Below, one piece after another: positions 3,448-43,371 of a stretch of 64,000 nt of DNA (within the stretch, counting starts at the first letter, position 1; each line of letters starts with the position of its first letter). The stretch comes from an uncultured Pseudomonadales bacterium (GTDB lineage Bacteria > Patescibacteriota > Microgenomatia > UBA1400 > PJMF01). A program made the translations under genes and the position numbers. Below the pieces are notes generated by a model. The model ran no database searches and was not told the DNA's origin. It saw only the letters and a list, made by a program, of their open reading frames with translations. The DNA lies in assembly GCA_964645645.1 (NCBI GenBank), contig CAZYBC010000004.1:5148-69147 (forward strand). Reading direction: 5' to 3'.

Positions 3448-5450
3448 AAAATCTCGGTCAAAAATTAATTAAATATTCTTTATCTGCACTTAAAAATTTC
3501 CAGGAAATTTTTATCTTTTTTCTATTATTAAATTGTTTTTTTATCAATCAGCTATTTAGCAAAATTACAAATATAAATAAGTTACCAACTTTGATTAAAC
3601 AAATTGTTCACAATTGTCAGCAGATTGTACTAAAGGTTATGAACAAACTGGATAGAGGAAGCCGTGACAGTATTTCTCAAACTGAGATTATCCAAATTTC
3701 TCTTGAAAATATGTTTGTTAAAACTACCAGAACCGCAATTACAGTAGGAGGTATGAGCATTGCTATTGCCGTGATTGTTTTTTTAGTTTCTATTGGTTAT
3801 GGTTTACAAGATTTAGTTGTTTCTAGAGTTAGTAAATTAGAAGAAATGCAACAAACTGATGTGACTACTGGAGATGTAGGCAACTTATTTATTAATGATG
3901 AAAGCCTCAATGTTTTTTCTGGCATTAATCATGTTAAAGCTGTTTACCCAATTATTTCTTTAGTTGGAAAAGTCAGCATCAAAGAATCAGCCACCGAAGT
4001 AGTCATTAATGGCGTTACAAGCGATTATCTTAAAAACTCTGCTCTTAAAACCAGCAAAGGATATATTTTTGAAAATAAAGATACCACTCAGCCAGTCGCT
4101 GATAAAAAATTAACACTTACTCCTAGCCAAAACGTCGAGCCAGATATAAATGTGCTAATCGGTGAAGTTGAATTTTATCTTGATCAAAATCAATGGTTAG
4201 CAGTTAGAGAAGAACCTCAAAACAATGCCACTATCATTGGCTATACTCAACGCATCAATAGCCGAGCTCAAAATGGAGAAGAAGTCTGGGGAGAAAGTTA
4301 TAATAATGAGGAAACAACTGGCCAAGCTAGTGAGAGCGCTACTGGCCAAAAACTCGGTAAATGGATTAAAAGCGAAGTGGCTCTATGGGAAAAAACTGCT
4401 TGCGATGAAAGTAATTCTGATTGTATTAACGGCCAGTACTTAATGATTAGAGACAATAGCCAACAGCAACTAAAACAGATAGGTTATTTAACTGAAAATA
4501 AATTAACTGCCTATAGTTTAGTCAAACCACTGGGCGCCGAGACCAATAACACCATTAATGAAAACCAAAGCCAATCAATTGATGACCAAATTAAAGAATT
4601 AACTTCTCAAAACAAAGAAGAAGTTAGCAAAACTGAAAAAATAAAATTAAGTGATGAAGCTCAAAAAGAAATTATTGTTAATAATGCCATGGTGCAATTA
4701 TTAGGTGAAAATCTAGATAGCATTCTTAATAAAGAGATTGAAATTACCTTTATAGTTACCAGTGATCTAACCACTGGCCAACAAAATAAAAAAGTTGAAT
4801 CTTTTCCTGCTAAATATAAAGTGATTGGCATTATTAATAATGGCACTAATGCCATGGCTTGGGTACCCTTTACAGATCTACGCTCTTTAGGCATTAATAA
4901 TTATTCTAGTGCTAGAGTCATTTTGGATACAGATAAAAACCTAACAATTGTAAGAACTCAGATTGAGAATATGGGCTATAAAACAAATTCAGTGGCGGAC
5001 ACTGTTACTAAAATAAAAAATCTCTTTACTACTTTTAGAATTACCCTTGCTGCTATTGGAATGGCATCTTTAGGTGTAGCTGCACTGGGAATGTTTAACA
5101 CCTTAACAATTTCACTCTTAGAAAGAACCAGAGAAGTAGGCGTCATGAAAGCCATTGGCATGAAATCTAGAGAAGTTAGAGATTTATTTTTATCAGAATC
5201 AATGATCATGGGTTTTATGAGTGGTATTTTAGGAATTATCATTGGTTTTGTAGCTGGAAAAGTCACTGGTTTATTACTCTCTGTATTTTCACTCACTAAA
5301 GGTTATGGTTTATTGAATATTACTTCATTACCACTTTCTTTTATCTTGATAATTATGTTTTTATCAATTACAGTTGGATTTGTGACTGGTATCTATCCAG
5401 CTAATCGAGCGAAAAAAGTATCAGCATTAAATGCGGTGAGATATGAATGA
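3444..5450 (+). CDS. ABC transporter permease, FtsX/MacB-like, with a large extracytoplasmic domain
   Basis: N-terminal TM segment, about 400-aa soluble domain, then C-terminal FtsX-type TM helices (LLERTREVGVMKAIGM motif). Translationally coupled to the upstream ATPase. Confidence 0.8.
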   Translation: MKNLGQKLIKYSLSALKNFQEIFIFFLLLNCFFINQLFSKITNINKLPTLIKQIVHNCQQIVLKVMNKLDRGSRDSISQTEIIQISLENMFVKTTRTAITVGGMSIAIAVIVFLVSIGYGLQDLVVSRVSKLEEMQQTDVTTGDVGNLFINDESLNVFSGINHVKAVYPIISLVGKVSIKESATEVVINGVTSDYLKNSALKTSKGYIFENKDTTQPVADKKLTLTPSQNVEPDINVLIGEVEFYLDQNQWLAVREEPQNNATIIGYTQRINSRAQNGEEVWGESYNNEETTGQASESATGQKLGKWIKSEVALWEKTACDESNSDCINGQYLMIRDNSQQQLKQIGYLTENKLTAYSLVKPLGAETNNTINENQSQSIDDQIKELTSQNKEEVSKTEKIKLSDEAQKEIIVNNAMVQLLGENLDSILNKEIEITFIVTSDLTTGQQNKKVESFPAKYKVIGIINNGTNAMAWVPFTDLRSLGINNYSSARVILDTDKNLTIVRTQIENMGYKTNSVADTVTKIKNLFTTFRITLAAIGMASLGVAALGMFNTLTISLLERTREVGVMKAIGMKSREVRDLFLSESMIMGFMSGILGIIIGFVAGKVTGLLLSVFSLTKGYGLLNITSLPLSFILIIMFLSITVGFVTGIYPANRAKKVSALNAVRYE

Positions 5451-5454
5451 TGTT

Positions 5455-5670
5455 ATTGATCATAGGCTTTGTAAACACACCGCGAGCGGAATGGTTTACA
5501 AAGCCTATGATCAATAACTTAATTAAACACGCCGCAGGCGGAACGATTTACAAGATCTAATATTAGCTATTCTAGTTAAACGCACCGCAGGCGGAACGAT
5601 TTAGAAAGAACAATACTAAGATCATAACTTGATATTTTTTAAATGCACCGCAAGCGGAATGGTTTAAGCT
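5455..5670 (+). repeat. Tandem array of four REP-like imperfect palindromic units. The 26-nt cores are AAACRCRCCGC-NN-GCGGAAYGRTTTA, starting at 5473, 5525, 5578 and 5641. The first unit is embedded in a longer 22-bp-arm inverted repeat.
   Basis: Direct reading shows cores aaacacaccgcgagcggaatggttta, aaacacgccgcaggcggaacgattta, aaacgcaccgcaggcggaacgattta and aaatgcaccgcaagcggaatggttta. Flanking arms are ttgatcataggctttgtaaac / gtttacaaagcctatgatcaa. Confidence 0.8.
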
Positions 5671-5713
5671 AATTCCTTTATTAAAAAATCAAGTTTAAAA
5701 TAAAACTAGACTT

Positions 5714-6067
5714 ATGAACTTACTTTTTTTTACTTTATCTGCTTTGTTAAGTTATCGTTTTAATAGTTCTTTATCTAGACAAGGACATAAGATTAATAAA
5801 AGAATGCCGTATTTAAAAGTTAAATGTTTTCAGTTTAGTCCTAACATCAAAATTATTCTTAAAAGTAGAACTATTCACCTTCATCATTGGTTTACTTACT
5901 CAATTATTTTAATTATTACCCTTACTTTTAAGGCTGGATTTTTAGATAGCTTATTTTCTCAAGGTTTTTTATTAGGTGGCATTATTCAGGGTTTAACTTT
6001 TCCAGACTGGAAAAAATTTGTCATTAAAAATGAAGAACTTGAATCAAACCGTCAATTAAAACTATGA
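5714..6067 (+). CDS. Hypothetical small membrane protein
   Basis: ORF only, with hydrophobic segments and no recognisable motif. Confidence 0.3.
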   Translation: MNLLFFTLSALLSYRFNSSLSRQGHKINKRMPYLKVKCFQFSPNIKIILKSRTIHLHHWFTYSIILIITLTFKAGFLDSLFSQGFLLGGIIQGLTFPDWKKFVIKNEELESNRQLKL

Positions 6068-6816
6068 ACAATATCTTGATACCTTTATCACTTTCATTTT
6101 TAGCTGGAATCTGTACAGTTTTTGGAAGTTTTATTCTTTTTTTTATTAAAAATTTTAAAAAAAGTTATTTAAGTTTTTTTCTAGGAATTTCTGCTGGATC
6201 AATGATTTACCTTTCCTTTATGGAATTAATGCCAGAATCAGTTACTGAACTCGGCTTTGGACTAGCTAATACAATGTTTTTTTTAGGAATATTATTTATT
6301 GCAATTATAGATTTTATTGTTCCTCATCATTTTATAAACTATTGCTCAAAAAAAGGTATTAAATATAATAAACTGATGCTTTCAGGATTTATGGTTGCTG
6401 TAGCTATAACAATTCATAATTTTCCAGAAGGAATAGCAGTTTTTATGAGCTCATTAGGAAATACTCGTTTTGGCCTTTTAATTGCTTTTGCTACCGCTCT
6501 TCACAATATCCCAGAAGGAGTAGCAGTTGCCACACCAATTTATTTTGCTACTAAAAATAAATTTAAAGCTTTTAGCTATTCACTCCTAGCCGGTATTGCC
6601 GAACCATTAGGAGCCATTATTGCTTTTATTATTTTAAAACCTTATCTTTCCCCAATTTTTTTATCTTATATTTTCGCTTTCATCGCTGGAATAATGATTT
6701 ACATTAGCTTTGATGAATTATTACCATCTTGTTTTAAAAATAGCCAAGAACACACAGCAATTGCTGGTATTATTCTAGGCATGCTAATAATGGTTTTAAG
6801 TTTAAATTTTATTTAA
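6064..6816 (+). CDS. zupT: ZIP-family zinc transporter (ZupT-like)
   Basis: Multi-TM protein with HNFPEGIAV and HNIPEGVAVA metal-binding motifs typical of ZupT. Confidence 0.8.
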   Translation: MNNILIPLSLSFLAGICTVFGSFILFFIKNFKKSYLSFFLGISAGSMIYLSFMELMPESVTELGFGLANTMFFLGILFIAIIDFIVPHHFINYCSKKGIKYNKLMLSGFMVAVAITIHNFPEGIAVFMSSLGNTRFGLLIAFATALHNIPEGVAVATPIYFATKNKFKAFSYSLLAGIAEPLGAIIAFIILKPYLSPIFLSYIFAFIAGIMIYISFDELLPSCFKNSQEHTAIAGIILGMLIMVLSLNFI

Positions 6817-6863
6817 TTTTTTATTTTCTATAACACTAACATTTGATAAATAATACTTGACTT

Positions 6864-6885
6864 TTATTGAATATCTATTCAATAA
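6864..6885. promoter_or_regulatory. Operator-like palindrome TTATTGAATA-tc-TATTCAATAA. It sits between a TTGACT -35-like hexamer (6857-6862) and the likely true start codon at 6893.
   Basis: Perfect 10-bp inverted arms read directly. The same core recurs at 8122-8155. Confidence 0.55.
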
Positions 6886-6892
6886 TGTTATT

Positions 6893-8095
6893 ATGCCCAA
6901 ATCTAAAAAACAACCAAATAATAAATTATTATTTTTACTAACATTCTGCTTAATTTCCCTATTTTTAATCATTTACTTAATTATAAATAAACCAATTTCT
7001 GTTTTTAAAAACTTAGAAAAAAAATCAACTATTAATGGATTGATGATGCTCATTGAGTTTGAAAAAATTGACGGCATTTTACAATGGGAAAAAGAATTAG
7101 ATAGTCGTAATTTAACAGCTCTAGTTAAAGTTCAAAACAATGTTTTAGAAGAATACCCAGAAGTTTTTGAAAGATTAGCCAGCAAAGGTTATGAAATTGC
7201 TGGAGGATACGATAAAGCTGCCTTTTGGGATATGTCTTATGAAGAACAATATAAATATTTAAAAGAAGCACAAGAAATAGTAGAAAAAACAACTCATAAA
7301 AAAATGAAAGTTTTTGGTAGCCGCTATTTTGCTTATGATGAAAACACGCTTAAAGCTGCTGATGAATTAGGTATTGAATATATTTTAGGGAGAGGAACTC
7401 AAGATGTTTTAGCTCTTATTTATGCTCCTCAAGAATATAATATTAAAATTATTTCTGTTACTAATGTTGAAAATGGAGAAATGGGACGGGGTTCGTTATG
7501 CGATTATAGTCTTTGGGCTAGAGGAGCTGATTCAAAAGAATTTGCCCAAATTTTAACAGAAAGTATTGCTAAGAAACCAAAAAACATGATTTTAGTTTCT
7601 CATGCTTATCTGGGTGGGACTAGACTGGAGTGGTGGGAAGAATATAAACAAATCTTAGAATCTGACCAAATATCTTGGGTAGATTTTGATACTTGGGTAA
7701 ATAAACAAAACATTTTAACAATCTCAAATACTGATATTCCAATCAATCGAGAAGTAAAATATGTCCAACCTCAACCAGCTAAGGATATGGAAGAATATGC
7801 TCCAATTCCATCTTTAGAACAGAATGAATTAGTCATATTTCATAATGGATTAGGAGAAATGTGTTTAGAGGCTTTAAAATTTTTTAAACAACATCAAATT
7901 AAATTTATAGAATACTTAAACACAGACAAAAATTTTGCTAACCTACTAGCTAATTATCAAAAAGTATATCCCAATAGTGAAGGTGAATCAGATAGCTACC
8001 AATATTTTCCAGTCATTTTTTACAAAGGAAAAGCTTATTCTGGATTCAACGAAAAAATCAGAAATGAAATCTTAAAAAATTCTTCGAGAAAATAA
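6893..8095 (+). CDS. Hypothetical membrane-anchored protein with a C-terminal glutaredoxin-like segment. The ORF track starts it at a TTG at 6857, but the ATG at 6893 (MPKSKKQ) is the more likely start.
   Basis: N-terminal TM anchor. No catalytic motif recognised. The track start overlaps the promoter and operator. Confidence 0.5.
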   Translation: MPKSKKQPNNKLLFLLTFCLISLFLIIYLIINKPISVFKNLEKKSTINGLMMLIEFEKIDGILQWEKELDSRNLTALVKVQNNVLEEYPEVFERLASKGYEIAGGYDKAAFWDMSYEEQYKYLKEAQEIVEKTTHKKMKVFGSRYFAYDENTLKAADELGIEYILGRGTQDVLALIYAPQEYNIKIISVTNVENGEMGRGSLCDYSLWARGADSKEFAQILTESIAKKPKNMILVSHAYLGGTRLEWWEEYKQILESDQISWVDFDTWVNKQNILTISNTDIPINREVKYVQPQPAKDMEEYAPIPSLEQNELVIFHNGLGEMCLEALKFFKQHQIKFIEYLNTDKNFANLLANYQKVYPNSEGESDSYQYFPVIFYKGKAYSGFNEKIRNEILKNSSRK

Positions 8096-8121
8096 TATCT
8101 CTCTTGACATTTAGCTTCCAT

Positions 8122-8155
8122 ACAATTATATTGAATACTTATTCAATATAATTGT
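8122..8155. promoter_or_regulatory. 34-bp perfect palindrome ACAATTATATTGAATA-ct-TATTCAATATAATTGT. It overlaps the -10 region downstream of a TTGACA hexamer at 8104-8109, upstream of the DUF5320/DUF134 pair.
   Basis: 16-bp perfect inverted arms read directly. It shares the TATTGAATA/TATTCAATA core with 6864-6885. Confidence 0.6.
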
Positions 8156-8178
8156 AAAAATGAAAGGATAAATACAAT

Positions 8179-8370
8179 ATGCCAAGATTTGATAAAACAG
8201 GCCCACAAGGACAAGGTCCAAAAACTGGAAGAGGCATGGGAGAATGCGAAAAAAATGAAAAAAAGACAAAAAGAGGATTTGGAAGATGTTGTGATAAATA
8301 TGGTAGAGGTATGGGGAGATTTGCAGGAAAAAATATTGAGCAAATAGAAGAAAAAAATACTGATGCCTAG
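8179..8370 (+). CDS. DUF5320-family small Gly/Pro-rich protein
   Basis: MPRFDKTGPQGQGPKTGRGMGEC matches the MPRGDGTGPxGxGPxTGRG signature of DUF5320. An AGGA-type RBS lies 8 nt upstream. It is adjacent to a DUF134 gene, as is usual for this family. The antisense ORF 8143-8343 is rejected. Confidence 0.6.
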   Translation: MPRFDKTGPQGQGPKTGRGMGECEKNEKKTKRGFGRCCDKYGRGMGRFAGKNIEQIEEKNTDA

Positions 8371-8641
8371 AAATAAAATCCCCCGTTGTATACAGTTTAA
8401 TTCTAATGTTGTTTATTTTAAACCTCAGGGTATTCCACTAAAAATACTGGAAGAAGTCGTCCTTTTAGTTGAGGAGGTTGAAGCTTTAAGGCTTTACGAG
8501 GTCGATAACTTAAACCAAATAAATGCTGCTGAAAAAATGAAAATCTCACAGCCAACTTTTGCGAGAATCTTAGCTAGTGCAAATAAAAAAATTGCTGAGG
8601 CAATTGTTAAAGGTAAAGCTATTAGGATTTTATATCAATAA
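8363..8641 (+). CDS. DUF134/UPF0251-family putative DNA-binding protein
   Basis: MPRNKIPRCIQFNSNVVYFKPQGIP ... LSQPTFARIL ... GKAIRI matches the UPF0251 pattern (MPRxxKxRxV..P....FKPxGIP, C-terminal HTH). Confidence 0.65.
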   Translation: MPRNKIPRCIQFNSNVVYFKPQGIPLKILEEVVLLVEEVEALRLYEVDNLNQINAAEKMKISQPTFARILASANKKIAEAIVKGKAIRILYQ

Positions 8642-8664
8642 AAATTTGTAAAAATTTTCAATAG

Positions 8665-8700
8665 ACTTACTGCAAAATTTTATTTCGCAGTAAGTTTATT
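8665..8700 (+). terminator. Rho-independent terminator hairpin (ACTTACTGC...GCAGTAAGT) followed by TTATT
   Basis: 9-bp perfect stem read directly, 20 nt after the DUF134 stop. Confidence 0.5.
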
Positions 8701-8830
8701 AATTAAGCCAATCTTTGCCCATAGTTAAAATGAGTAAAACTCTAGCTTATCATAAATGGTTCTGTAGCAAAAAAACCTAGCTATCTGTTTTTTTTCTGTT
8801 TATAATGAGAATAATGCAGGTTTTGAAAAA
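8695..8830 (-). pseudogene. Degraded remnant of the 3' end of a metallophosphoesterase paralog (compare 15418-16098)
   Basis: The reverse complement reads ...FMIS*SFTHFNYGQRLA*, paralleling PLMINPGFTRFNYGQ of 15418-16098. About 70 percent nucleotide identity to 15440-15545, with an internal stop. Confidence 0.5.
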
Positions 8831-11504
8831 AATCTCTATTCCTTTGTGGAAGAAACTAATCATTAGATTTTTGTTATTAGTGGTTCTAACTGGCAACCTT
8901 TATTACTTATCATGGAGATTTAACACTTTATTCTGGACTAATAGAACTTTATCTGGCCTTTTGTTACTGACTGAATTAGTTTTTTTTGCTAATTTTTTAA
9001 TTCATTTTCCAGTTTTATGGCTTAAAAAACCAAAAAATATTTTAACCCAGATACCTAAATTTACTAAAAAATTAGCCATTTTGATTCCTACTTACAATGA
9101 ACCATTAAACATTCTTAGCCAGACCATCGAACAAAGTTTAGCTATAGCAATTCCTCAAAATTTAAAAGTTAAGATTGTGGTATTAGATGACGGCAACCGG
9201 GACTGGCTAAAAAAATATGTTAAGGAGTTAGCCAAAACAACTTCGGTCACTTTGGAATACTTAACTAGAACCGAAAGGTTTGGTTATAAAGCTGGCAACA
9301 TTAACAACTACCTTAAAAGTGTTTGCCAAGAAGATTTTATTTTAGTTTTAGATGCTGATTTTGTTCCTTTCAAAAATATTTTGGAAGAATTTTATCCTTA
9401 CTTAGGTATTGAAAAATTAGGTTTTGTTCAAGCTCCGCAATTTTTTAATAATATTGCTAAAGGTGATCCGTTTGGACAGGATCCTGCTATCTGGTTTTCA
9501 CTTTTACAGGTTGGCAGATATGGTCAAAATGCCTTAATTTGTTGTGGCTCTCCAACTTTATGGTCAGTGCCAGCTCTTCAATCTATTGGCTATATGCAAT
9601 ATAGCGTCACCGAAGACTTTTTAACTGGAGCAATGATTCAATCAAAAGGATGGCAAGCTATTTATTTGCAAAAAGATGTTGCTGAGGGTAAAGCGAGTGA
9701 AGATATTATTGATGTCAAGAAAAAAACTTTACGTTATTCTTCCGGGGCTTTTGAATTTTTTTCTTTTGCCAAAAAGTTATTAGCCAATGGCCATTTGTCT
9801 TTAAGACAACGTTTTTTACATTTTACCTATCCTTTAGCTTTTGTTGCACCTTTACTAACCCCAATTTTAATTGCCATTCCGATTTTATCCATCTTAACAG
9901 GCATTAGCCCTTTTGTTATTGACCAAAGTAGTTACCCTCATTTATTAAGCCAAATTATTGCTTTAATTAGTTTTCAAATTATTTTCTTTTTAGCCGTAGG
10001 TAAAAAAGCTTGGAAATCTTGGCAATTTTATTTAGGAATGTTCCCAGTTTATACAAAAGCGCTGTTACAAACTATCTTTGGTAAAACTGTGTTTCAAGTT
10101 AGTAAAAAAGGCGTCCAAAGTGCCGCGGCTTATGCTCAATTAAAAGCAGTTCGATTACAAATTTTTATTTTATTACTAAGCTGGGTTACCTTTTTTAAAG
10201 GTTTATTACTTTTTAGAGAAAATATTATTAGTATTTCTTTATATCCAGCTCTTTTCTGGTTGTTACTCAATAATTTTCTATTATTTGGCGTAATAAAAGC
10301 TCCTTTGTATTTAAGTTGGCAACAACTATTAACTCAAATTAAAGAACTAGGTAAAAATAAATTAAACTTTTTATTCAATAAAAAATTTGCGTTGATGGCT
10401 TTTATTTTTTTGATTATTGCTGGAGCAGGCAGTATGTGGTTTAGACAACGCTCAGTGCCTAATATAGAAGTTAAAGTACAACAAACAAATCTTAATAAAA
10501 TGAAAAATAACTTAGATTTATTAACAACTAAGTTATCACTTAATGACGACAGACGCTTCCAAACTTTACTATTTTTTACTGATTGGGGTGATAATAAGCG
10601 TGAAGTTGGCCAGGCTAATTTTTATCTTAAAGTTGAACCATCATTAAACTTAGCTTATGAAAATCAACTTGTGCCAATTATTACTTGGGAACCAGTAAAA
10701 AAGAATCTTTTAGGAGAATTTGCCGAAGACATCACTTTAAAAAGTATTAGAGAAGGGCAAAGCGACCAATATTTAATTGGCTGGCGAAATGGTTTGCAAG
10801 AATGGATGGATAAACATCCCGGATACGAAGTGAGAATTAGATTAATGCACGAAATGAACGCTCCAATTGACCGCTACCACTGGAGCCATGTTTCTCCAGC
10901 TGAATATCGAGCCAGTTATGAATATGTTTATAATTTAATTAGCCAAGTTAATGGTAATTTAAAGTGGATGGCAGTTTTCCAAAACTTCACGGCTGATGCT
11001 GGATGGACACAAAAACGAGCTAAAGATTATGACCGTTATATTCCTAATATTCCGGTTGATTATATTGGAATAGATGGTTACAGCAGACCTTTCTTAGCTG
11101 GTAAAGATGGGCCACCTGGAGGAGAAGTTACTCCAGCTCAAGTGTTACCCAGAGCCTTCTTTAAAGCCATGCGAGAAGCTTATCCCCAAGCAAAACTAGT
11201 TATCAGTGAAACAGCTGTCCCATATATGCCTAAAACTGATGAAGCCTTACCTTATCCAGCTGGAGAACTATCTTATCAAATGACAGATCTTGAGCGAGCC
11301 GCGTGGATTAATGACTTTAAAGATTATTTATTAGAGATCGACCAAGATTTTGGACTAGAAGAGATGACCTGGTTTAATGGTAATACTGATTATCATTGGT
11401 CAATTTTTGCCGAACAAGACCAATTAACAATCGCTGCCTTTAAGCAATTAATGTTAGAGTTAAATAAGGCTAAAATTAAAATTGGAATATATCCTGGTGA
11501 ATAA
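8805..11504 (+). CDS. Membrane GT2 processive glycosyltransferase (cellulose/chitin-synthase-like) fused to a C-terminal GH26-like domain
   Basis: GT2 motifs VVLDDGNRD, VLDADFVP, QAPQFF and TED, plus multiple TM helices. The C-terminal 350 aa carry RLMHEMNAPIDRYHW, resembling the GH26 motif of the two downstream genes. The true start may lie downstream of 8805. Confidence 0.65.
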   Translation: MRIMQVLKKISIPLWKKLIIRFLLLVVLTGNLYYLSWRFNTLFWTNRTLSGLLLLTELVFFANFLIHFPVLWLKKPKNILTQIPKFTKKLAILIPTYNEPLNILSQTIEQSLAIAIPQNLKVKIVVLDDGNRDWLKKYVKELAKTTSVTLEYLTRTERFGYKAGNINNYLKSVCQEDFILVLDADFVPFKNILEEFYPYLGIEKLGFVQAPQFFNNIAKGDPFGQDPAIWFSLLQVGRYGQNALICCGSPTLWSVPALQSIGYMQYSVTEDFLTGAMIQSKGWQAIYLQKDVAEGKASEDIIDVKKKTLRYSSGAFEFFSFAKKLLANGHLSLRQRFLHFTYPLAFVAPLLTPILIAIPILSILTGISPFVIDQSSYPHLLSQIIALISFQIIFFLAVGKKAWKSWQFYLGMFPVYTKALLQTIFGKTVFQVSKKGVQSAAAYAQLKAVRLQIFILLLSWVTFFKGLLLFRENIISISLYPALFWLLLNNFLLFGVIKAPLYLSWQQLLTQIKELGKNKLNFLFNKKFALMAFIFLIIAGAGSMWFRQRSVPNIEVKVQQTNLNKMKNNLDLLTTKLSLNDDRRFQTLLFFTDWGDNKREVGQANFYLKVEPSLNLAYENQLVPIITWEPVKKNLLGEFAEDITLKSIREGQSDQYLIGWRNGLQEWMDKHPGYEVRIRLMHEMNAPIDRYHWSHVSPAEYRASYEYVYNLISQVNGNLKWMAVFQNFTADAGWTQKRAKDYDRYIPNIPVDYIGIDGYSRPFLAGKDGPPGGEVTPAQVLPRAFFKAMREAYPQAKLVISETAVPYMPKTDEALPYPAGELSYQMTDLERAAWINDFKDYLLEIDQDFGLEEMTWFNGNTDYHWSIFAEQDQLTIAAFKQLMLELNKAKIKIGIYPGE

Positions 11505-32900: not shown

Positions 32901-34922
32901 CTATTCATATCTCAACGCATTTAATGCTGAAATTTTGGTGGCTCTTTTAGCAGGATAATGACCAGTTAAAATTCCCACAATGGTTGATAAAAACATTACA
33001 GAAATAACAAAAGTAAAAGGAATTACTGAGACATCAACTAAACCAACTCCCTTTACCACAGCTACACTGGATAAAGCCAAACTCAATAATTTTCCTGCGC
33101 TATAACCAATCATCAATCCCAATAAGCCCCCATAAAAACCCATAATCATCGATTCGGTTAAAAATAATTCTTTTACTTCTGCAGATTTCATGCCCATTGC
33201 TTTCATCAAACCTACTTCACGGGTTCTCTCTAATAAAGACACCGTTAAAGTATTAAACATCCCCAAAGTAGCAACTGCTAAAGCCACCATCCCCACTATC
33301 CCTAAAACTAATCTAAAAGTAGCAAACAAATTATTAATCTGAGCAACTGTATCAACTACTGAAACTGTCCCATAACCCATTGATTCAATCGCCGATCTAA
33401 CATTAGCCAACTGATTTTTTTCTTTGACAATAATTTTAATTTGAGACATGCGATTAATGCCCAAAGACCTCAATTCCACAAAAGGAACATAAACTACAGG
33501 CGTATCTTCTTCTGGAGTAACTCCTACAATTTTGTAAGTGGTGGGGGCAGATTCAATTCTTTCTGTTTCTCCCTCAACCAAATTACCAATTGCCACAAAA
33601 GTTAAAGTGATTTCTTGACCGACAGCTTGATTTTCAGCTAAACCGATGACATTTAACACTGCTTTGTTAACTACTGCTTCTCGTAAAGAATTTTTATTGA
33701 GCTCTACAACCTTAATTTTGTTATTTATGGGCATATTAGCCGAACTACTAGCCAAATTAACAATTGGCAAAGTGCCATCAGCTTTAGTAACGCCTAACAC
33801 TTTGGCTGACTCATTGACTGTAATTGGAGAAAGCCAAGCCGTATAACCCTCTTTTATTAATTGTTTGCCAGCTTCATCTCTAAGAGGAATATATTGCCCA
33901 TCTTCACAATCTTGGTCAACCACGGCTAAAGCATTTACCTCGGTTTTTTCTGCCTCAGTTTTAACGCAAGTTTGATTTTTCCACAAAGTAAATTCTGCCT
34001 TAATCCAAAAAGCAGTGTTTGTTGGTAAACTATCTTCTGGACCAGCATAATCGGCATAATGATCACCTAAAACTTGACTGCCATTTTGAGTCTCAGCTAC
34101 TTTTTTAGTGTAACCTAATACCGAACTTTGAGTAGAGGATTCACTACGCACTCTCAGCCACTCACCCTCTTTAATACTAAAAGTTAAAAGCTCAGCGCTA
34201 TCACTAGCTTGCTGAGTTTGACCAGTAATATCAGTAGTAATAATCTTGCTTGATTTTGGTGAAGTAGAACTAACTAAATCATCACTCACAAAAATTTGGC
34301 CGTGAATGGGCTGAATAGCTGAGCTTTTTAAATAATCGGTGGTAACTCCATAAACTGCTAAATCTGAAACAGAATTTTGATAAGAAATTTTACCAACAAC
34401 ACTGATTAAGGGGAGTGTAGCCTTAATTTGTGGCATATCTTTTAAACTAGCCAGCAATGATTCATTTAAAGCAGTTTCTTCACTTAACCCAGGTAAAATT
34501 TCTGCTTGTTCAAGCTCTTCCAACCGAGCCACTCGTGAAGTAACTAAATTTTCTAAACCATAACCAACTGAGACTAAAAAAACAATAAAAGCAATACTAA
34601 TGGCCATCCCGCCAATCGTGACCATGGTTCTGGTTTTTTTAACCTGCATATTGCGGAATGACAATTCAATTAAATAAGATCGGCTTAAAGTTTTTTGCTG
34701 ATTTTTTTCTAAAAAATCCAAAGTTTTTTCATAAAATTTATCAAATTGACCGGCCAAAGAGAGAACAGGTTTTAACCAAAAATAATCTTTTTTAATAGCT
34801 AATAAAAGATTAAAAACAATCTTAAGAGAATATAAAACCACCATTAACATAAAGCTGGCAAGATTTTTAAATCTAAATAACAACATCTTTAACCAGTTGT
34901 TTATTTTTTTCCAAATGATCAT
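32901..34922 (-). CDS. ABC transporter permease, FtsX/MacB-like (paralog of 3444-5450)
   Basis: Same architecture and C-terminal FtsX TM block (LLERTREVGLMKAMGM) as 3444-5450. Confidence 0.8.
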   Translation of the reverse strand: MIIWKKINNWLKMLLFRFKNLASFMLMVVLYSLKIVFNLLLAIKKDYFWLKPVLSLAGQFDKFYEKTLDFLEKNQQKTLSRSYLIELSFRNMQVKKTRTMVTIGGMAISIAFIVFLVSVGYGLENLVTSRVARLEELEQAEILPGLSEETALNESLLASLKDMPQIKATLPLISVVGKISYQNSVSDLAVYGVTTDYLKSSAIQPIHGQIFVSDDLVSSTSPKSSKIITTDITGQTQQASDSAELLTFSIKEGEWLRVRSESSTQSSVLGYTKKVAETQNGSQVLGDHYADYAGPEDSLPTNTAFWIKAEFTLWKNQTCVKTEAEKTEVNALAVVDQDCEDGQYIPLRDEAGKQLIKEGYTAWLSPITVNESAKVLGVTKADGTLPIVNLASSSANMPINNKIKVVELNKNSLREAVVNKAVLNVIGLAENQAVGQEITLTFVAIGNLVEGETERIESAPTTYKIVGVTPEEDTPVVYVPFVELRSLGINRMSQIKIIVKEKNQLANVRSAIESMGYGTVSVVDTVAQINNLFATFRLVLGIVGMVALAVATLGMFNTLTVSLLERTREVGLMKAMGMKSAEVKELFLTESMIMGFYGGLLGLMIGYSAGKLLSLALSSVAVVKGVGLVDVSVIPFTFVISVMFLSTIVGILTGHYPAKRATKISALNALRYE

Positions 34923-35701
34923 TGCTGTAATTTTTCTCCTCGTTTTGTATTATGAATATTTTTTTTAAAATATTCACTGGGATTTGTAGCTTGAGAAATA
35001 ATTTTGCCATCAAACATTTCTAAACTCCGAGAAGCATAATCTAAATATTCCAAATCGTGAGTCACCATAATCACTGTTTTACCTTGCCGATGTAAATTAG
35101 CCAGCAATTTCATCAACTCTTGACCAGATTTAAAATCTAAATTACCAGTTGGCTCATCCGCAATGATTAAATCTGGATTAGTCACCATCGCTCTAGCTAA
35201 AGCCACGCGTTGTTGTTGTCCGCTAGATAACTCTGTAGGGATATAATCTTGCCAATCGGTCATGCCTACTAAATCTAAAACCGCCAAAGCCTTTACGGCA
35301 GCCTCTTTGGCTTTCATGCCGCTTAAACGCAATGGAAACATCACATTTTCTTTAACCGTTAAAGCTTTTACCCAGTTGGGCTGCTGATAAACCATGCCAA
35401 TGTAATATTTTCTTAAATCAGATAGGCCATCTTCATCAAGGCTATCATATAAAGATTGACCTTTAAATAAAACTTTGCCATGAGTAGGTTTTTCCAAGCC
35501 CAATAAAATATGCAATAAGGTAGATTTACCACAACCTGATGGCCCAAAAATTACTAAAAATTCGCCAGCTTTTACGACTAAATTAATATCCATTAAAATA
35601 GGCGTGGCTTGAGCTTTCACAAAAAAAGTTTTATCTATATTAATCGCTTCAAGCACAGGGCGATTAGATTTTGCTGGTAGAGTCTTATTCATTTCAATCA
35701 T
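34919..35701 (-). CDS. ABC transporter ATP-binding protein (paralog of 2704-3447, roughly 55 percent identical by eye)
   Basis: [37 protein letters not shown]. Confidence 0.9.
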
Positions 35702-40872: not shown

Positions 40873-41229
40873 ATGTTTTATCAAAGCATGCCACTTTATC
40901 TAGAGCTGATTAACTTACTCAAGTTAGAATATAAGCTAAATAAAAATATTGCCAAACAATATCGTTATTCTTTGGGAGAAAAAATTATTGATTTAACCTG
41001 GCAAATGCTGGATTTATTTATTGAAGTTCAACATTTAAGCAACATTTCAAACTCTAATAAAACAGCTCTCATTAAAACAATGATTGCTGATCATGAAAAA
41101 TTGCAATTACGGCTCAGATTTTTAGGAGAATTGCAACTAATTTCTCTTAAACAACAAGCTCAATTGCTTGCTCATACAACGGCTATTGGCAAAATGCTGG
41201 GCAGCTGGCTAAAACATGTCCCAAAATAA
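40873..41229 (+). CDS. avd: DGR accessory variability determinant (Avd, four-helix-bundle family)
   Basis: 118 aa, helical, bAvd-like layout. Lies directly between the TR and the RT and overlaps the RT by 14 nt. Confidence 0.75.
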   Translation: MFYQSMPLYLELINLLKLEYKLNKNIAKQYRYSLGEKIIDLTWQMLDLFIEVQHLSNISNSNKTALIKTMIADHEKLQLRLRFLGELQLISLKQQAQLLAHTTAIGKMLGSWLKHVPK

Positions 41230-42400
41230 AACTAGCACAATTTTTACTTATCAAAAAATTCTTAAAGCTTATTTTTTCTGCCGAAAACATAAGCGTCAAG
41301 CTCTGAGTGCTTTGGCTTATGAACTAAACTTTGAGAAAAATCTTGGTCAATTGATAGAGCAGCTACAAAATAAAACCTATCAACCCCAAAGTGCGGTTTA
41401 TTTTATTGTTACCAAACCAAAACCTAGGGAAATTTTTGCCAGTGAATTTGGAGATAGAATTACCCATCATTTGCTTATTAACGAAGTAGAAAAAATCTGG
41501 GAAAAAGACATTTTCATCACTGATTCTTATGCTTGTAGAAAGGGCAAAGGCCACCATTTTGCCCTCCAAAGAGTGAAAAACTTAGCTAAAAAGTATCGAT
41601 ATTATGGCCAATTTGATATTAGTAATTTTTTCTCTAGTATTGATAAAAATATTTTATTTGAAATTTTTGCCAAAGTTATAAAAACACAAGCAAAACCAGA
41701 ATTCTGGAAAAATAATCTTTTATGGCTAACTAAAATAATTATTTTTTCTGATCCCACCCAAGATTTTTTTTATAAAGGCAATCAAAAATTAAAAAAATTA
41801 GTGCCAGCACAAAAGTCATTATTTAATCAAGAACCAGAAATTGGCTTGCCGATTGGCAATCTAAGTAGCCAATTTCTGGCTAATGTTTATCTTAATGAAC
41901 TAGATCAATTTGTAAACAAAAAGCTTAAAATAACCGCCTACGCTAGGTACGTTGATGACTTTTTAATCTTTAGTAATTCAAAAACTAAAGTTATTCAAGC
42001 CAGAAATCAAATTAAAGAATTTTTAAAAACTGAACTCAAATTAACCTTGCATCCTAAAAAACAGCAAATTCAAACTACTTGGCATGGCATTCCTTTTGTT
42101 GGCTACTTTATTAAGCCAGGTGGAGCGCAAGTTAGAAGAAATGTGGTAAAAACTCTTAAAAATAAATTGTTTTATGCCCAAAAACTCAAAAATTTACCCC
42201 AAATCATTACCTCTTTAAATTCTTATTATGGCCATTTTATTCATGCTAATTCATATCGCTTAAGAAAACACCTTTTTAAACAACATCTAAGTCAAGAATT
42301 TCATCAGTATCTGTGGGTAAAAGGTCATTACCAATCTTTTTGGCCAACTAAAAAGTTTTTTGCTAAAGGAAAAAATCTTTCCTTTAGCAAAAAAAAATAA
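41216..42400 (+). CDS. DGR reverse transcriptase
   Basis: RT motifs SYACRKGKGHHFAL (motif 2-like), LPIGNLSSQFLANVYLNELD (motif B') and YVDDFLIF (YxDD). 394 aa, typical for DGR RTs. Confidence 0.9.
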   Translation: MSQNKTSTIFTYQKILKAYFFCRKHKRQALSALAYELNFEKNLGQLIEQLQNKTYQPQSAVYFIVTKPKPREIFASEFGDRITHHLLINEVEKIWEKDIFITDSYACRKGKGHHFALQRVKNLAKKYRYYGQFDISNFFSSIDKNILFEIFAKVIKTQAKPEFWKNNLLWLTKIIIFSDPTQDFFYKGNQKLKKLVPAQKSLFNQEPEIGLPIGNLSSQFLANVYLNELDQFVNKKLKITAYARYVDDFLIFSNSKTKVIQARNQIKEFLKTELKLTLHPKKQQIQTTWHGIPFVGYFIKPGGAQVRRNVVKTLKNKLFYAQKLKNLPQIITSLNSYYGHFIHANSYRLRKHLFKQHLSQEFHQYLWVKGHYQSFWPTKKFFAKGKNLSFSKKK

Positions 42401-42411
42401 AAAAACTCAAA

Positions 42412-42463
42412 CCCGCCTTTGGCGGGAATAAAAACCTAAGTTTCAGATTCTGAAACTTAGGTT
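42412..42463. terminator. Two adjacent hairpins (CCCGCCtttGGCGGG and AACCTAAGTTTCAGAttcTGAAACTTAGGTT) between the convergent RT and target genes
   Basis: Perfect stems read directly. The second hairpin lies immediately 3' of the VR on the target sense strand. Confidence 0.6.
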
Positions 42464-42607
42464 TAAAAGGCCTTAGACTAAAACACACACCGAAATGAAT
42501 ATGTAGCTGTAGTCTTGGTAAGGTTGTACGTGACGCCACTGCTTAGATGAGTGTACCAAGCGTTATTAGTAACAGTGGTGGAAGTCGTGCCAGACCAATA
42601 AGTGGCT
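42462..42607 (-). other. DGR variable repeat (VR), covering the last 42 codons and the stop of the target gene
   Basis: See TR. VR codons T,S,V,H,S,V,Y,L correspond to TR AAT/AAC codons. Confidence 0.92.
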
Positions 42608-43371
42608 GCACTATTACTTAAAAACTCAGCTGAGCCATCTATATAGGCCATCATCAACTCTTTTTGATAAGGCAAGCGCCAACCAGTACCTAAAGCTTCA
42701 CAGCCGGTTTTACTACTAATTAGTTTTACACACTTACAAGCCACATCGCCATGAGCAACACAAGAGCCAGGATTCTCCGCTGAACCAGGCTGAGCACAAT
42801 TATTCGCCGTAAACCAATTCGCCGCACTACTAATTCTAGCCGACCAGACTAAGCCAGTGTTGGCATCCTGCTTTTCTGCTTGAGCATTACTAGTATTACA
42901 GTAAGTATTCGCTTCATTACAAGTGGTCCAGCTAGCCAGATAACTCCCAGTTGGTAAAGTAGTAGCATCATGAATCCCGCCCACACTCTGTGGATAATCT
43001 GCATTTCCGCCATTATATGTACCATTAGCCTTAGCATCATTAAAAGTTCCTCTGGCAGCCGCATTAATTCTATTCCAGTAAGCCCCCCAATCTCCCCAGG
43101 ACCCAGCGGCCGTACTACCATAATCTAAAGTTGTTAAAGCATCAGCGAGTTGTTTTAAACGAGAATCAGCCTCAGATTCTGGAGAAGAACCTGTCTGTTC
43201 GGCGCGAATAATTTTAATTTGCCGGTTAAGACTCAGCCCTACCAAAACTAAAAACCCCACGGACAAAACTAACTGCCACGAAAAAATTTTTTGGCTTCTT
43301 ACAAATAGCAAGCGGATTTTTTGAAAAAATTTCATACTAATAATATGACGGATTAGAGAATGAGGTGTCAA
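42478..43371 (-). CDS. DGR target protein: secreted or membrane-anchored DUF1566 / C-type-lectin-fold (FGE-like) protein with the VR at its C-terminus
   Basis: GWRLPYQKELMMAY (DUF1566 WRLPT.EL motif), N-terminal hydrophobic anchor, C-terminal ...YSFRCVF typical of DGR CLec-fold targets. Confidence 0.85.
   Translation of the reverse strand: MTPHSLIRHIISMKFFQKIRLLFVRSQKIFSWQLVLSVGFLVLVGLSLNRQIKIIRAEQTGSSPESEADSRLKQLADALTTLDYGSTAAGSWGDWGAYWNRINAAARGTFNDAKANGTYNGGNADYPQSVGGIHDATTLPTGSYLASWTTCNEANTYCNTSNAQAEKQDANTGLVWSARISSAANWFTANNCAQPGSAENPGSCVAHGDVACKCVKLISSKTGCEALGTGWRLPYQKELMMAYIDGSAEFLSNSAATYWSGTTSTTVTNNAWYTHLSSGVTYNLTKTTATYSFRCVF

Follow-up and report, generated by a model that had tools for sequence, protein, structure and literature searches.

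The 64-kb window (the whole stretch of DNA analysed, 64,000 nucleotides) holds two perfect palindromes with a common core, TATTGAATA-NN-TATTCAATA, which are probably operators of the DUF134/UPF0251 protein encoded downstream of the second one. Through them, this small regulator would repress its own operon and co-repress a gene for a CE4/NodB-like protein, forming a regulon of two promoters. This overall reading is a computed one: it is built on the sites and their rarity, on the geometry of promoters that are themselves consensus predictions, on conservation across bacteria and archaea, and on the covariation of the operators with the recognition helix of the protein. The features involved are as follows.

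6064–6816, + strand: ZIP metal-transporter gene (Pfam Zip, 105 bits), directly upstream of operator 1; context only.
6857–6862, + strand: −35 element TTGACT of the CE4/NodB-like gene promoter (promoter scan, 10/12, 18-nt spacer).
6864–6885, no strand: operator 1, a perfect 10+2+10 palindrome, TTATTGAATA-TC-TATTCAATAA.
6868–6873 and 6876–6881: core of operator 1, TGAATA and TATTCA (sequence reading).
6881–6886, + strand: −10 element AATAAT of the CE4/NodB-like gene promoter (promoter scan), ending 6 nt before the ATG at 6893.
6893–8095, + strand: CE4/NodB-like gene, 400 aa (Pfam Polysacc_deac_1, 40.4 bits against a cut-off of 23.1).
8104–8109, + strand: −35 element TTGACA of the DUF5320–DUF134 promoter (promoter scan, 11/12, 17-nt spacer).
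8121–8156, no strand: operator 2, a perfect 17+2+17 palindrome containing ACAATTATATTGAATA-CT-TATTCAATATAATTGT at 8122–8155.
8127–8132, + strand: −10 element TATATT of the DUF5320–DUF134 promoter, its last T being the first base of the operator 2 core.
8132–8137 and 8140–8145: core of operator 2, TGAATA and TATTCA (sequence reading).
8163–8168, + strand: Shine-Dalgarno-like AAAGGA, 10 nt before the DUF5320 ATG (sequence reading).
8179–8370, + strand: DUF5320 gene, 63 aa, Gly/Arg-rich with 3 Cys (Pfam PF17253, 50.8 bits against a cut-off of 27).
8363–8641, + strand: DUF134/UPF0251 gene, 92 aa (Pfam PF02001, 70.5 bits against a cut-off of 27, residues 3–87).
8660–8700, + strand: terminator-like hairpin at the end of the operon (RNA fold −17.8 kcal/mol, z = −5.9), with UUUAUUAAUU after it.

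That operator 1 is a perfect palindrome with 10-bp arms, as the original prediction had it, can be read directly from the sequence, and the core that was said to be common to both palindromes is indeed found in each. For operator 2, the perfect palindrome proposed at 8122–8155 stands, but its extent was drawn too short, one more pair bringing it to 8121–8156. The two sites are also rare: the 64 kb contain no third TATTGAATA-NN-TATTCAATA site, and TATTGAATANNTATTCAATA has exactly two exact matches, the operators themselves, with a single extra match at 3 mismatches, inside an ORF (0.18 expected at up to 3 mismatches, and none of 100 shuffles reaching three). With a 22-nt weight matrix trained on 69 orthologous sites, operator 2 scores 24.8 and operator 1 scores 19.7, when the next best position in all 64 kb reaches 4.6, which leaves no further regulon site above that score in the window; simulated windows yield 0.07 matches of at least 12. 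The two sites seen against 0.07–0.18 expected show that the motif does not occur at random frequency. Perfect palindromes with arms of at least 10 bp are likewise in excess, with eight entries at five places against 0.85 in simulation.

Operators 1 and 2 sit on the two promoter-like sequences that rank highest in the region (sigma-70-type consensus predictions), the DUF5320–DUF134 promoter being the top site of the scanned region, and the promoter scan (11/12 and 10/12) agrees with the earlier claim that each palindrome overlaps the spacer or the −10 of a TTGAC(A/T) promoter. Operator 2 spans the −10 and the predicted start site (about 8139), and operator 1 occupies the whole −35/−10 spacer and overlaps the −10 of the CE4/NodB-like gene promoter. 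Because this −10 lies so close to the ATG and no Shine-Dalgarno sequence precedes the gene, the spacing indicates that its mRNA is probably leaderless. At the DUF5320 gene, GGAGG-type sequences occupy the equivalent of the Shine-Dalgarno-like position in orthologues.

The arrangement extends well beyond the window. In a comparison set of about 170 related loci, with 80 genome loci for the count of the core, TGAATA-NN-TATTCA precedes DUF5320/DUF134 operons in 69 of the 80, from CPR bacteria, Dependentiae and DPANN archaea, at about 40–50 nt upstream of the DUF5320 start codon and at the same promoter position, in keeping with the expectation that orthologues would have the motif upstream as well. 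Over these 69 loci, conservation of the G and the C in TGAATA/TATTCA is about 99%, and the geometry is fixed (TTGACA, 16–18 nt, then a −10 hexamer that ends with the opening T of the core) in 60 of 70 orthologous sites, the −35 TTGACA being at the same distance in 61 and a −10-like hexamer in register with the core in 69. Part of this operator conservation is promoter conservation, since the flanks ATTATG/CATAAT resemble −10 boxes. The Dependentiae loci with the core before DUF5320 are L059 and L067, and in the DPANN loci L073 and L077, which have the core, a TATA-like box stands in for the −35/−10. The motif stays with DUF5320, which leads the operon, also where DUF134 lies 2–4 kb downstream in the gene run. 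In metagenome loci of 44–52% G+C, an AT-rich palindrome, GTTATGAATATATATTCATTAT, lies 16–22 nt upstream of the DUF134 ATG and no DUF5320 separates the two; the operator directly precedes DUF134 in this way in L081, L086 and L176 as well. Several archaeal-type loci have two sites per cluster (L097, L100, L101, L103, L115, L123, L128).

What ties the operator to DUF134 in particular is its covariation with the protein. The DUF134 protein of the window, whose homologues are 70–82% identical across Patescibacteria, combines a small beta-sheet with a sigma-70-region-4/DeoR-like helix-turn-helix (HTH), the recognition helix starting from Q63 (ISQPTFAR); its AlphaFold model (pLDDT 81.7) has three helices (36–47, 52–58 and 63–83), the third opened by Q63, and in both sequence and fold the HTH matches the DeoR DNA-binding domain and sigma-70 region 4. 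Over 152 loci, the inner triplet of the operator covaries with one residue of this recognition helix: AAT half-sites accompany 92 of 101 S-Q helices and none of 51 S-R helices (Fisher p = 1.6e-31, uncorrected for phylogeny, the loci not being independent). The S-Q-P-T-F-x-R helix is paired with ATG-AAT-A, and S-R helices with ATG-AGC-A, GAC or GGC: SRPTFQR and SR(P/Q)TFGR helices go with ATTATGAGCATATGCTCATAAT, SRPTFHR with TTATGGACATAGGTTCATAA and SRSTFQR with ATGGGCATATGCCCAT. The covariation rests on about four independent Q/R transitions, counted on a neighbour-joining tree of the 90-residue protein built with the helix masked. The remaining nine of the 101 S-Q loci are without an AAT site in a simple search, and some of them have incomplete upstream DNA or a distant operon start. 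In the SR..GR class, TTGACA is followed at once by the operator, whose right flank is the −10, as at operator 1. Cys9 was considered as a sensor residue for the whole family and rejected, being invariant in the CPR subfamily only.

The nearest well-understood counterpart is DeoR of Bacillus subtilis (SorC family; structures 7bhy and 8r7y), whose HTH shares 40% identity over 40 residues with that of DUF134 (rmsd 0.7 A to 7bhy). The recognition helices are alike (ISRPTVSR in DeoR, ISQPTFAR here), and in the DeoR–DNA complex R34 and R39 of this helix contact bases (PMC11229326); R34 corresponds to Q63 of the window's protein and R39 to the invariant R68 of DUF134. The DNA-binding domains of DeoR, a repressor, sit as a dimer on a promoter-overlapping inverted repeat with ATTGAA/TTCAAT half-sites (PMC11229326). 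The two systems differ in that DeoR has a sugar-phosphate effector domain of 250 residues and functions as a tetramer, on a composite operator of 39 bp, whereas the window's DUF134 has 92 aa and no effector domain, in the spacing of the half-sites (2 bp for DUF134, 6 for DeoR), and in that DUF134, unlike DeoR, has the Gly/Arg/Cys-rich DUF5320 encoded with it or, elsewhere in the family, carries a zinc ribbon as a fusion. Since the window's protein ends at residue 92 and Pfam assigns it to DUF134 only, it is not a member of the SorC family, although its HTH is homologous. Taken with the covariation, this homology to a DNA-bound DeoR sustains the proposal that DUF134 is the likely autoregulator.

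We infer that DUF134 binds as a dimer and that its effect is repression, not activation. One subunit of the dimer would take each half-site (consensus TTATGAATA, here TATTGAATA); on operator 2, over the −10 and the start site, it would block RNA polymerase and thus its own synthesis, and on operator 1, in the −35/−10 spacer, it would co-repress the CE4/NodB-fold gene.

The protein encoded by this second target had been described as membrane-anchored and of unknown function. The anchor is there (helix 10–32 of an AlphaFold model with pLDDT 85.6), but the family is partly known: the N-terminal anchor is followed by a fold of the CE4/NodB (polysaccharide deacetylase) type and, at the C-terminus, by an alpha/beta domain in which one Cys is conserved, and the top Foldseek matches are ArnD (8t0j, E 1.6e-7) and many CE4 deacetylases. 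Among 25 orthologues read by eye, EFE 55–57 and AGGY 103–106 are invariant at the positions where the CE4 motifs TFDD and HSxxH are expected, and with regard to the Asp-His-His triad, H237 is the sole invariant His. Orthologues are 57–74% identical, and in 9 of 12 distinct loci the CE4-like gene lies within a DUF134 operon or has its own site: it is inside the operon in L019, L024, L058, L062, L086/87 and L176, it has its own operator 34 nt before the ATG in L177, and it lies downstream of a site and a DUF134 remnant in L178. No site was found before the stand-alone orthologues of L083–85, L088–89 and L090 (three distinct), which rules out universal conservation of operator 1 and makes it lineage-specific. 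The idea of a mini-regulon is thus upheld by the recurrence, in other genomes, of the CE4-like gene within DUF134 operons or downstream of a site of its own, but operator 1 itself belongs to some orthologues only.

Several other explanations of the palindromes have to be weighed against operators bound by DUF134. They might be boxes of another metal regulator, Fur/Zur or ArsR/SmtB, of which the DUF5320–DUF134 operon would merely be a target. Zn/Mn/Fe transport genes are abundant in DUF134 clusters, Fur-family genes adjoin the operon in L006, L009, L024, L028, L091 and L094, and ArsR-like genes do so in L003, L005 and L043. The likeness extends to the DNA: Fur and Zur also use AT-rich inverted repeats on the −10/−35 of metal-transport operons, and Fur, znuABC and ZIP are found in these same clusters; ArsR/SmtB proteins are small, autoregulated, metal-responsive repressors (an ArsR-like gene follows DUF134 in L003 and L005), whose operators have a 12-2-12 shape, the same two-base central spacer as here and TGAACA-NN-TATTCA-like or, more generally, TGAAxA..TATTCA-like cores. 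Fur/Zur boxes, however, are 7-1-7 or 9-1-9, against the 6-2-6 core here, and ArsR/SmtB proteins are winged-helix proteins, against the sigma-region-4-like HTH of DUF134. Fur and ArsR genes are found in three loci each among the clustered operon runs, and the three runs with ArsR-like genes do not include the window's cluster. Where the classic targets of Zur are at hand, in the Fur-ZnuA-ABC-ABC3-ZIP loci L091–L094, the DUF5320 promoter has the sole strong site, and no site with a score of at least 6 precedes Fur, ZnuA or ZIP, so that a Zur or ArsR box was rejected on the lack of a site before fur, znuA and ZIP in the closest relatives. The site tracks DUF134 and its helix instead, and the operator is kept directly before DUF134 in lineages richer in G+C. 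A foreign regulator would not explain why the inner bases of the operator covary with the DUF134 helix; it is because the triplet covaries with a base-contacting helix residue that we take DUF134, and not Fur/Zur or ArsR, to be the binder, and we regard another metal regulator as decidedly unlikely.

Alternatively, the palindromes could work as RNA hairpins, either terminating or stabilising the upstream transcript or as a 5′-UTR element. Operator 2 begins 26 nt past the CE4-like gene's stop codon. If transcribed from upstream, it would form a hairpin of −15.7 kcal/mol (z −7.8), and operator 1 one of −6.9 kcal/mol. Yet neither hairpin is followed by a U-tract, the predicted start lies in the centre of operator 2 and leaves an unstructured 5′ UTR (−1.9 kcal/mol, z 0.41), and hairpins at the orthologous sites are weak (−5 to −7 kcal/mol, z −1.2 to −2.0). 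It is the primary sequence of the half-sites that is conserved, not their pairing alone, and changes in it accompany those of a residue in the protein. An Rfam scan of 5300–8900 returned no family, only sub-threshold miRNA noise. On the unstructured 5′ UTR, the weak orthologous hairpins and the Rfam result, an RNA element was rejected as the main function, and we hold this explanation to be very improbable. The probability is smaller still, close to negligible, that the palindromes are a chance or promoter-derived AT-rich symmetry with no regulatory protein behind it. In a genome of 30% G+C (29–31% in this region) short AT-rich palindromes are common, and the resemblance of the operator flanks to −10 hexamers would fit such an origin; but the sites outnumber the expectation as given above, the near-invariance of the core G and C contradicts a chance reading, and the same 20-nt site is present in contigs of 44–52% G+C. 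The last alternative accepts that DUF134 binds the sites and holds that it activates, or that it acts as a promoter-recognition factor in the manner of sigma region 4, which its fold resembles, on flanks that double as −10-like elements. The promoters concerned are already at 10–11/12 of the sigma-70 consensus, the operators lie on their −10/+1 or −35/−10 spacer, a position standard for occlusion and not for class I/II activation, and DeoR, the nearest solved homologue, is a repressor (PMC11229326). We thus find activation unlikely, and retain DUF134 as the probable repressor of both promoters.

The role of DUF5320 is approached through the order of genes and through domain fusions. The DUF5320 gene leads the operon, its stop overlapping the DUF134 start by 8 nt, and an alignment of 43 orthologues displays a conserved N-terminal motif, MPxFDxTGPxGxGPxTGRGxGxC; the window's protein matches only the N-terminal half of the Pfam model (1–52 of 99), the C-terminal coiled-coil part being absent. 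We infer from these two kinds of evidence that DUF5320, translationally coupled and Gly/Arg/Cys-rich, is a partner of DUF134, serving as sensor or modulator. DUF5320 was also sought as a Pfam domain in the tails of long DUF134 proteins and CDF transporters, and this was rejected, as Pfam finds zinc ribbons only. By pairwise BLAST, the small protein of L052 matches the tail of the L077 DUF134 at 53% over 60 aa and CDF tails at 37–38%, matches that are partly low-complexity. An HMM of DUF5320 trained on CPR sequences is positive in 8 of 21 non-CPR operons and under-detects, missing L174, which is Pfam-positive.

With regard to the signal, the state of a metal, of Fe-S or of thiols may be what is sensed, judging by gene order and domain fusions. 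The neighbours of DUF134/DUF5320 include ZIP, ZnuABC, CDF, Fur, YibE/F, thioredoxins, NifX-like, MinD/NUBPL and EncFtn, and ZIP adjoins the DUF5320 promoter in L091, L092/L093, L019 and L073; the weight-matrix scan found no operator upstream of the window's own ZIP gene. The classical DUF134 clusters of anaerobes (COG1342 with NifX-like proteins and MinD/Fer4 ATPases) have the same regulator family, often with DUF5320 in the operon, and share the operator frame TTATG-NNN-A-NN-T-NNN-CATAA, there 29–51 nt before the DUF134 ATG. They differ in that DUF134 is the first gene and is longer (150–170 aa, having a zinc ribbon and a Gly/Arg/Cys tail at the C-terminus), in having an S-R helix with G/C-containing half-sites, and in their cargo, which is NifX-like, DUF364, EncFtn and MinD/NUBPL there and CE4-like, YibE/F, ZIP and thioredoxin here.

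On this basis, we tentatively raise a wider possibility, to which we give clearly less confidence than to the operators themselves: DUF134 and DUF5320 may form an undescribed two-part sensor-repressor of CPR bacteria, Dependentiae, DPANN archaea and many anaerobes, which would use the TTATG-NNN-A-NN-T-NNN-CATAA operator, sense metal, Fe-S or thiol state and control metal genes, with a Q/R choice of half-site. The DUF5320 module would be a separate protein in CPR bacteria, would be fused elsewhere to DUF134 together with a zinc ribbon, and would also occur at the C-termini of CDF transporters. The candidate targets, ZIP, CDF, ABC-3, YibE/F, NifX-like, MinD/NUBPL, EncFtn and DUF364, would be concerned with metal transport and the trafficking of metal cofactors, and the helix residue would set the half-site, Q specifying AAT and R specifying AGC/GAC.

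Many anaerobes and thousands of genomes from uncultured CPR and DPANN organisms encode DUF134/UPF0251 (COG1342), which has no described function, and a whole-word full-text literature search found no functional study of DUF134/UPF0251/COG1342 or of DUF5320. The sites presented here provide the first predicted operator for the family and a link to metal handling. Together, the operator, the predicted rule of specificity that pairs Q63 with AAT and R with AGC/GAC, and the recurring gene set would make the DUF134 family directly testable. If the reading is true, DUF5320, YibE/F and the highly conserved CE4-like envelope protein would be parts of a metal or thiol homeostasis module, and the regulon would be among the few that can be inferred in CPR bacteria, whose regulation is almost unknown.

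Two palindromes, termed sites 1 and 2, mark the promoters of a CE4-like gene and of an operon in which DUF5320, a small Gly/Arg/Cys-rich protein, precedes DUF134, the proposed helix-turn-helix repressor. The features of this region are as follows, with genes assigned by Pfam, palindromes read from the sequence, and promoters, like all start sites, predicted:

6064-6816: ZIP transporter
6857 (TTGACT), 18 nt, 6886 (AATAAT): promoter of the CE4-like gene, 10/12 consensus matches
6864-6885: site 1, TTATTGAATA-TC-TATTCAATAA
6893-8095: polysaccharide-deacetylase-family (CE4-like) protein
8104 (TTGACA), 17 nt, 8132 (TATATT): DUF5320-DUF134 promoter, 11/12 consensus matches
8122-8155, extended to 8121-8156: site 2, ACAATTATATTGAATA-CT-TATTCAATATAATTGT
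8179-8370: DUF5320
8363-8641: DUF134, its start overlapping the DUF5320 stop by 8 nt

The palindrome at 6864-6885 reads as originally described, and the one at 8122-8155 is present too, albeit with arms of 17 bp rather than 16, since a palindrome search added one pair (8121-8156). Their common 20-mer, TATTGAATANNTATTCAATA, occurs exactly twice in the 64-kb window, where one further match, with three mismatches, lies inside an ORF and 0.18 matches at up to three mismatches are expected by chance. Because the G+C content of the region is only 29-31%, we also used a 22-nt weight matrix derived from orthologous sites, which scored 24.8 and 19.7 at the two sites and 4.6 at the third best window position, when simulated windows yielded 0.07 matches scoring at least 12; the motif thus occurs above random frequency. 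Another perfect palindrome, TGAATATTTTTTTTAAAATATTCA (34953-34976, inside the minus-strand ORF 34919-35701), carries the TGAATA/TATTCA half-sites of the operators spaced by 12 nt instead of 2, and is probably due to chance given its low matrix score (-2.9).

The window also holds other repeats. A 34-nt repeat (reference TAATTAAACACGCCGCAGGCGGAACGATTTACAA) is found in four copies at 5446-5669, spaced by 52-63 nt, between an ORF ending at 5450 and the pair formed by a 117-aa ORF and ZIP; each copy holds a CCGC-N3-GCGG hairpin, the first is set within an inverted repeat with 31-nt arms (5446-5476/5494-5524), and the array has no Rfam family match. Further away, a perfect palindrome with 16-bp arms, AAACCTAAGTTTCAGA-T-TCTGAAACTTAGGTTT (42432-42464), separates the convergent ORFs 41216-42400 (+) and 42478-43371 (-) and may be a bidirectional terminator.

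Conservation of the motif upstream of orthologues was borne out when a genome collection was searched with aligned DUF134 proteins: of the 80 loci retrieved, 69 carry TGAATA-NN-TATTCA (the core, up to one mismatch allowed), centered about 40-50 nt 5' of the DUF5320 start codon. The core stays with DUF5320 even in gene runs that place DUF134 2-4 kb downstream (L003, L005, L021, L026, L028, and L073). As many MAG titles are taxonomically implausible, lineage statements are limited to the few clearly named records; the core is found in Dependentiae (L059 and L067) and in DPANN archaea (L073 and L077), in which a TATA-like box before the core replaces the -35/-10 elements. AT-rich, CPR-like contigs among L003-L082 are often titled "uncultured Gammaproteobacteria" or "Pseudomonadales," labels that look unreliable, and homologues 70-82% identical to the window DUF134 are labelled Patescibacteria, Woesebacteria, Beckwithbacteria, and Microgenomates, which places the window in a CPR bacterium.

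Aligned on the core, these sites give the consensus TTGACAA-N17-TATAAT|GAATAnnTATTCAttat, and 60 of 70 show a -35 element (at most one mismatch to TTGACA) followed after 16-18 nt by a -10, the final T of which also opens the core. Site 2 has exactly this register, so transcription of the operon is expected to start near 8139, the center of the palindrome. Both palindromes indeed sit on TTGAC(A/T) promoters, as had been proposed, and these are the top-ranked promoter-like sequences of the region. At site 1, the operator directly follows the -35 and its right flank doubles as the -10, the same layout that is standard (cTTGACAaATTATGAGCATATGCTTATAAT) in the SR..GR class of DUF134 loci. The CE4-like ATG (6893) lies 6 nt past the -10, with no Shine-Dalgarno sequence (6881-6895), so this mRNA is probably leaderless. 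Directly 3' of the DUF134 stop, the operon ends in a strong terminator-like hairpin (8660-8700; -17.8 kcal/mol, z -5.9), so the 899-aa GT2/cellulose-synthase-like gene at 8805 probably forms its own transcription unit.

To address which protein binds the palindrome, metagenomes were scanned with aligned divergent DUF134 sequences, which yielded 80 further loci. Loci encoding an I/V-S-Q-P-T-F-x-R recognition helix (S-Q class) have the same AT-rich palindrome, which on contigs of 44-52% G+C (L096, L105, L117, L127, L134, L146, L147, and L154) lies 16-22 nt before the DUF134 ATG with no DUF5320 between. Loci with an S-R helix have a palindrome 29-51 nt 5' of the DUF134 ATG that shares the outer frame and differs in its inner bases:

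SRPTFQR, SRPTFGR, and SRQTFGR: ATTATGAGCATATGCTCATAAT
SRPTFHR: TTATGGACATAGGTTCATAA
SRSTFQR: ATGGGCATATGCCCAT

Across 152 loci, the AAT half-site (named for its inner triplet) accompanies 92 of 101 S-Q proteins versus 0 of 51 S-R proteins (Fisher p = 1.6e-31, a value that ignores relatedness), and Q/R changes about four times on a neighbor-joining tree built with the helix masked. The DUF134 helix-turn-helix also matches the DNA-binding domain of Bacillus subtilis DeoR in sequence (E 5e-4) and in fold (40% identity over 40 residues, rmsd 0.7 A). In structures of DeoR on its operator, the half-sites are ATTGAA/TTCAAT, with base contacts made by R34 and R39 of ISRPTVSR (PMC11229326). Our alignment pairs R34 with Q63 of the window DUF134, the first residue of the third helix in its AlphaFold model, and R39 with the invariant R68. 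On computational grounds, this covariation and homology strongly support DUF134 as the protein that binds the palindrome, in line with the autoregulator originally suspected, and the DUF5320-DUF134 system would work as a small autoregulated repressor. The window protein is not a SorC-family member, however, since it lacks the effector domain of the DeoR/SorC regulators with which it shares a homologous helix-turn-helix. A full-text literature search on the names DUF134/UPF0251/COG1342 and DUF5320 found no functional paper.

Fur-family or ArsR-like genes often occur within DUF5320/DUF134 clusters, and the palindrome could then belong to a Fur/Zur-family or ArsR-like regulator, a very improbable reading. 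The closest relatives speak against a Zur box: L091 (Fur-ZnuA-ABC-ABC3-ZIP-DUF5320-DUF134), L092 (ZIP-DUF5320-DUF134-YibE/F-Trx and further genes), and L094 (DUF5320-DUF134-Fur-YibE/F-ABC-ABC3-Trx) each have a single strong site, at the DUF5320 promoter, and none upstream of Fur, ZnuA, or ZIP, where a Zur box would be expected. A function of the palindromes as RNA is likewise unlikely, and DUF134 remains the best candidate binder.

The site-1 gene had been described as a membrane-anchored protein of unknown function; its 400-aa product does have an N-terminal helix (residues 10-32), but a CE4/NodB fold is recognizable (nearest to ArnD and putative deacetylases), with a C-terminal alpha/beta domain holding one conserved Cys. 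The protein is strongly conserved in Microgenomates (57-74% identity). Among DUF134-centered loci, its gene lies downstream in the DUF134 gene run in L019 (DUF5320-DUF134-YibE/F-CE4-ZIP, one run), L024, L058, and L062. Loci retrieved via CE4 homologues are mixed. In L086/87 and L176, DUF134 and CE4 form an operon that has a site immediately 5' of DUF134 (scores 15.9 and 27.0); in L177, CE4 has a site of its own, ATAGTGAATTCATATTCATTAA, which lies 34 nt 5' of its ATG, with a DUF5320-DUF134 pair nearby. In L178 (3367-3500), a weaker operator-like site is followed by a DUF134 remnant (MPRNKIP... then stops) and the CE4-like gene; here, site and target appear to have survived the decay of the regulator gene. 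The proposed mini-regulon is thus supported: judged from gene neighborhoods and sites, the CE4-DUF134 link is recurrent (9 of 12 distinct loci, window included) but not universal, as three distinct orthologues retrieved via CE4 homologues have no site (L083-85, L088-89, and L090). Other repeats precede the orthologues in L083 (about 3925-3950; palindrome ATTGCAAC-AAA-GTTGCAAT) and L088 (about 3930-3960), with no DUF134 operator, and another regulator may control these genes.

In CPR loci, the operon is chained to genes for YibE/F (19 loci), a ~398-aa thioredoxin-like protein (17), a 90-aa thioredoxin (10), ZIP (7), NifX-like (6), CDF (6), MinD with a 4Fe-4S insert (5), and ABC/ABC-3 (3-5); non-CPR operons include DUF364/DUF4213 ("heavy-metal chelation"), DUF5320, NifX-like, EncFtn, MinD/Fer4, and NUBPL/Mrp. 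In L021 (4851-5891), DUF134 is in frame with a YibE/F-like membrane protein as one 346-aa ORF, which reflects a gene fusion or else a frameshift in the assembly. CDF proteins encoded inside expanded DUF5320...DUF134 operons (L003, L005, L021, and L028; e.g., L003 3465-4514) have Gly-rich tails with a CxCPxCG...CPxC zinc ribbon. Long-form DUF134 proteins carry at their C-terminus a zinc ribbon and a Gly/Arg tail that includes a CC pair, and a Gly/Arg-rich module with zinc ribbon is common to the L052 protein in DUF5320 position, the tail of the archaeal DUF134 in L077 (53% identity to the L052 protein), and the C-terminal ends of CDF transporters encoded in the operon (37-38% to the L052 module). 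The gene neighborhoods, these shared modules, and the conserved N-terminal motif of DUF5320, which includes one conserved Cys, suggest that DUF5320 may work with DUF134 and that the signal could be metal, Fe-S, or thiol state. Overall, with an operator and a Q/R rule in hand, the uncharacterized, widespread DUF134 family becomes directly testable.
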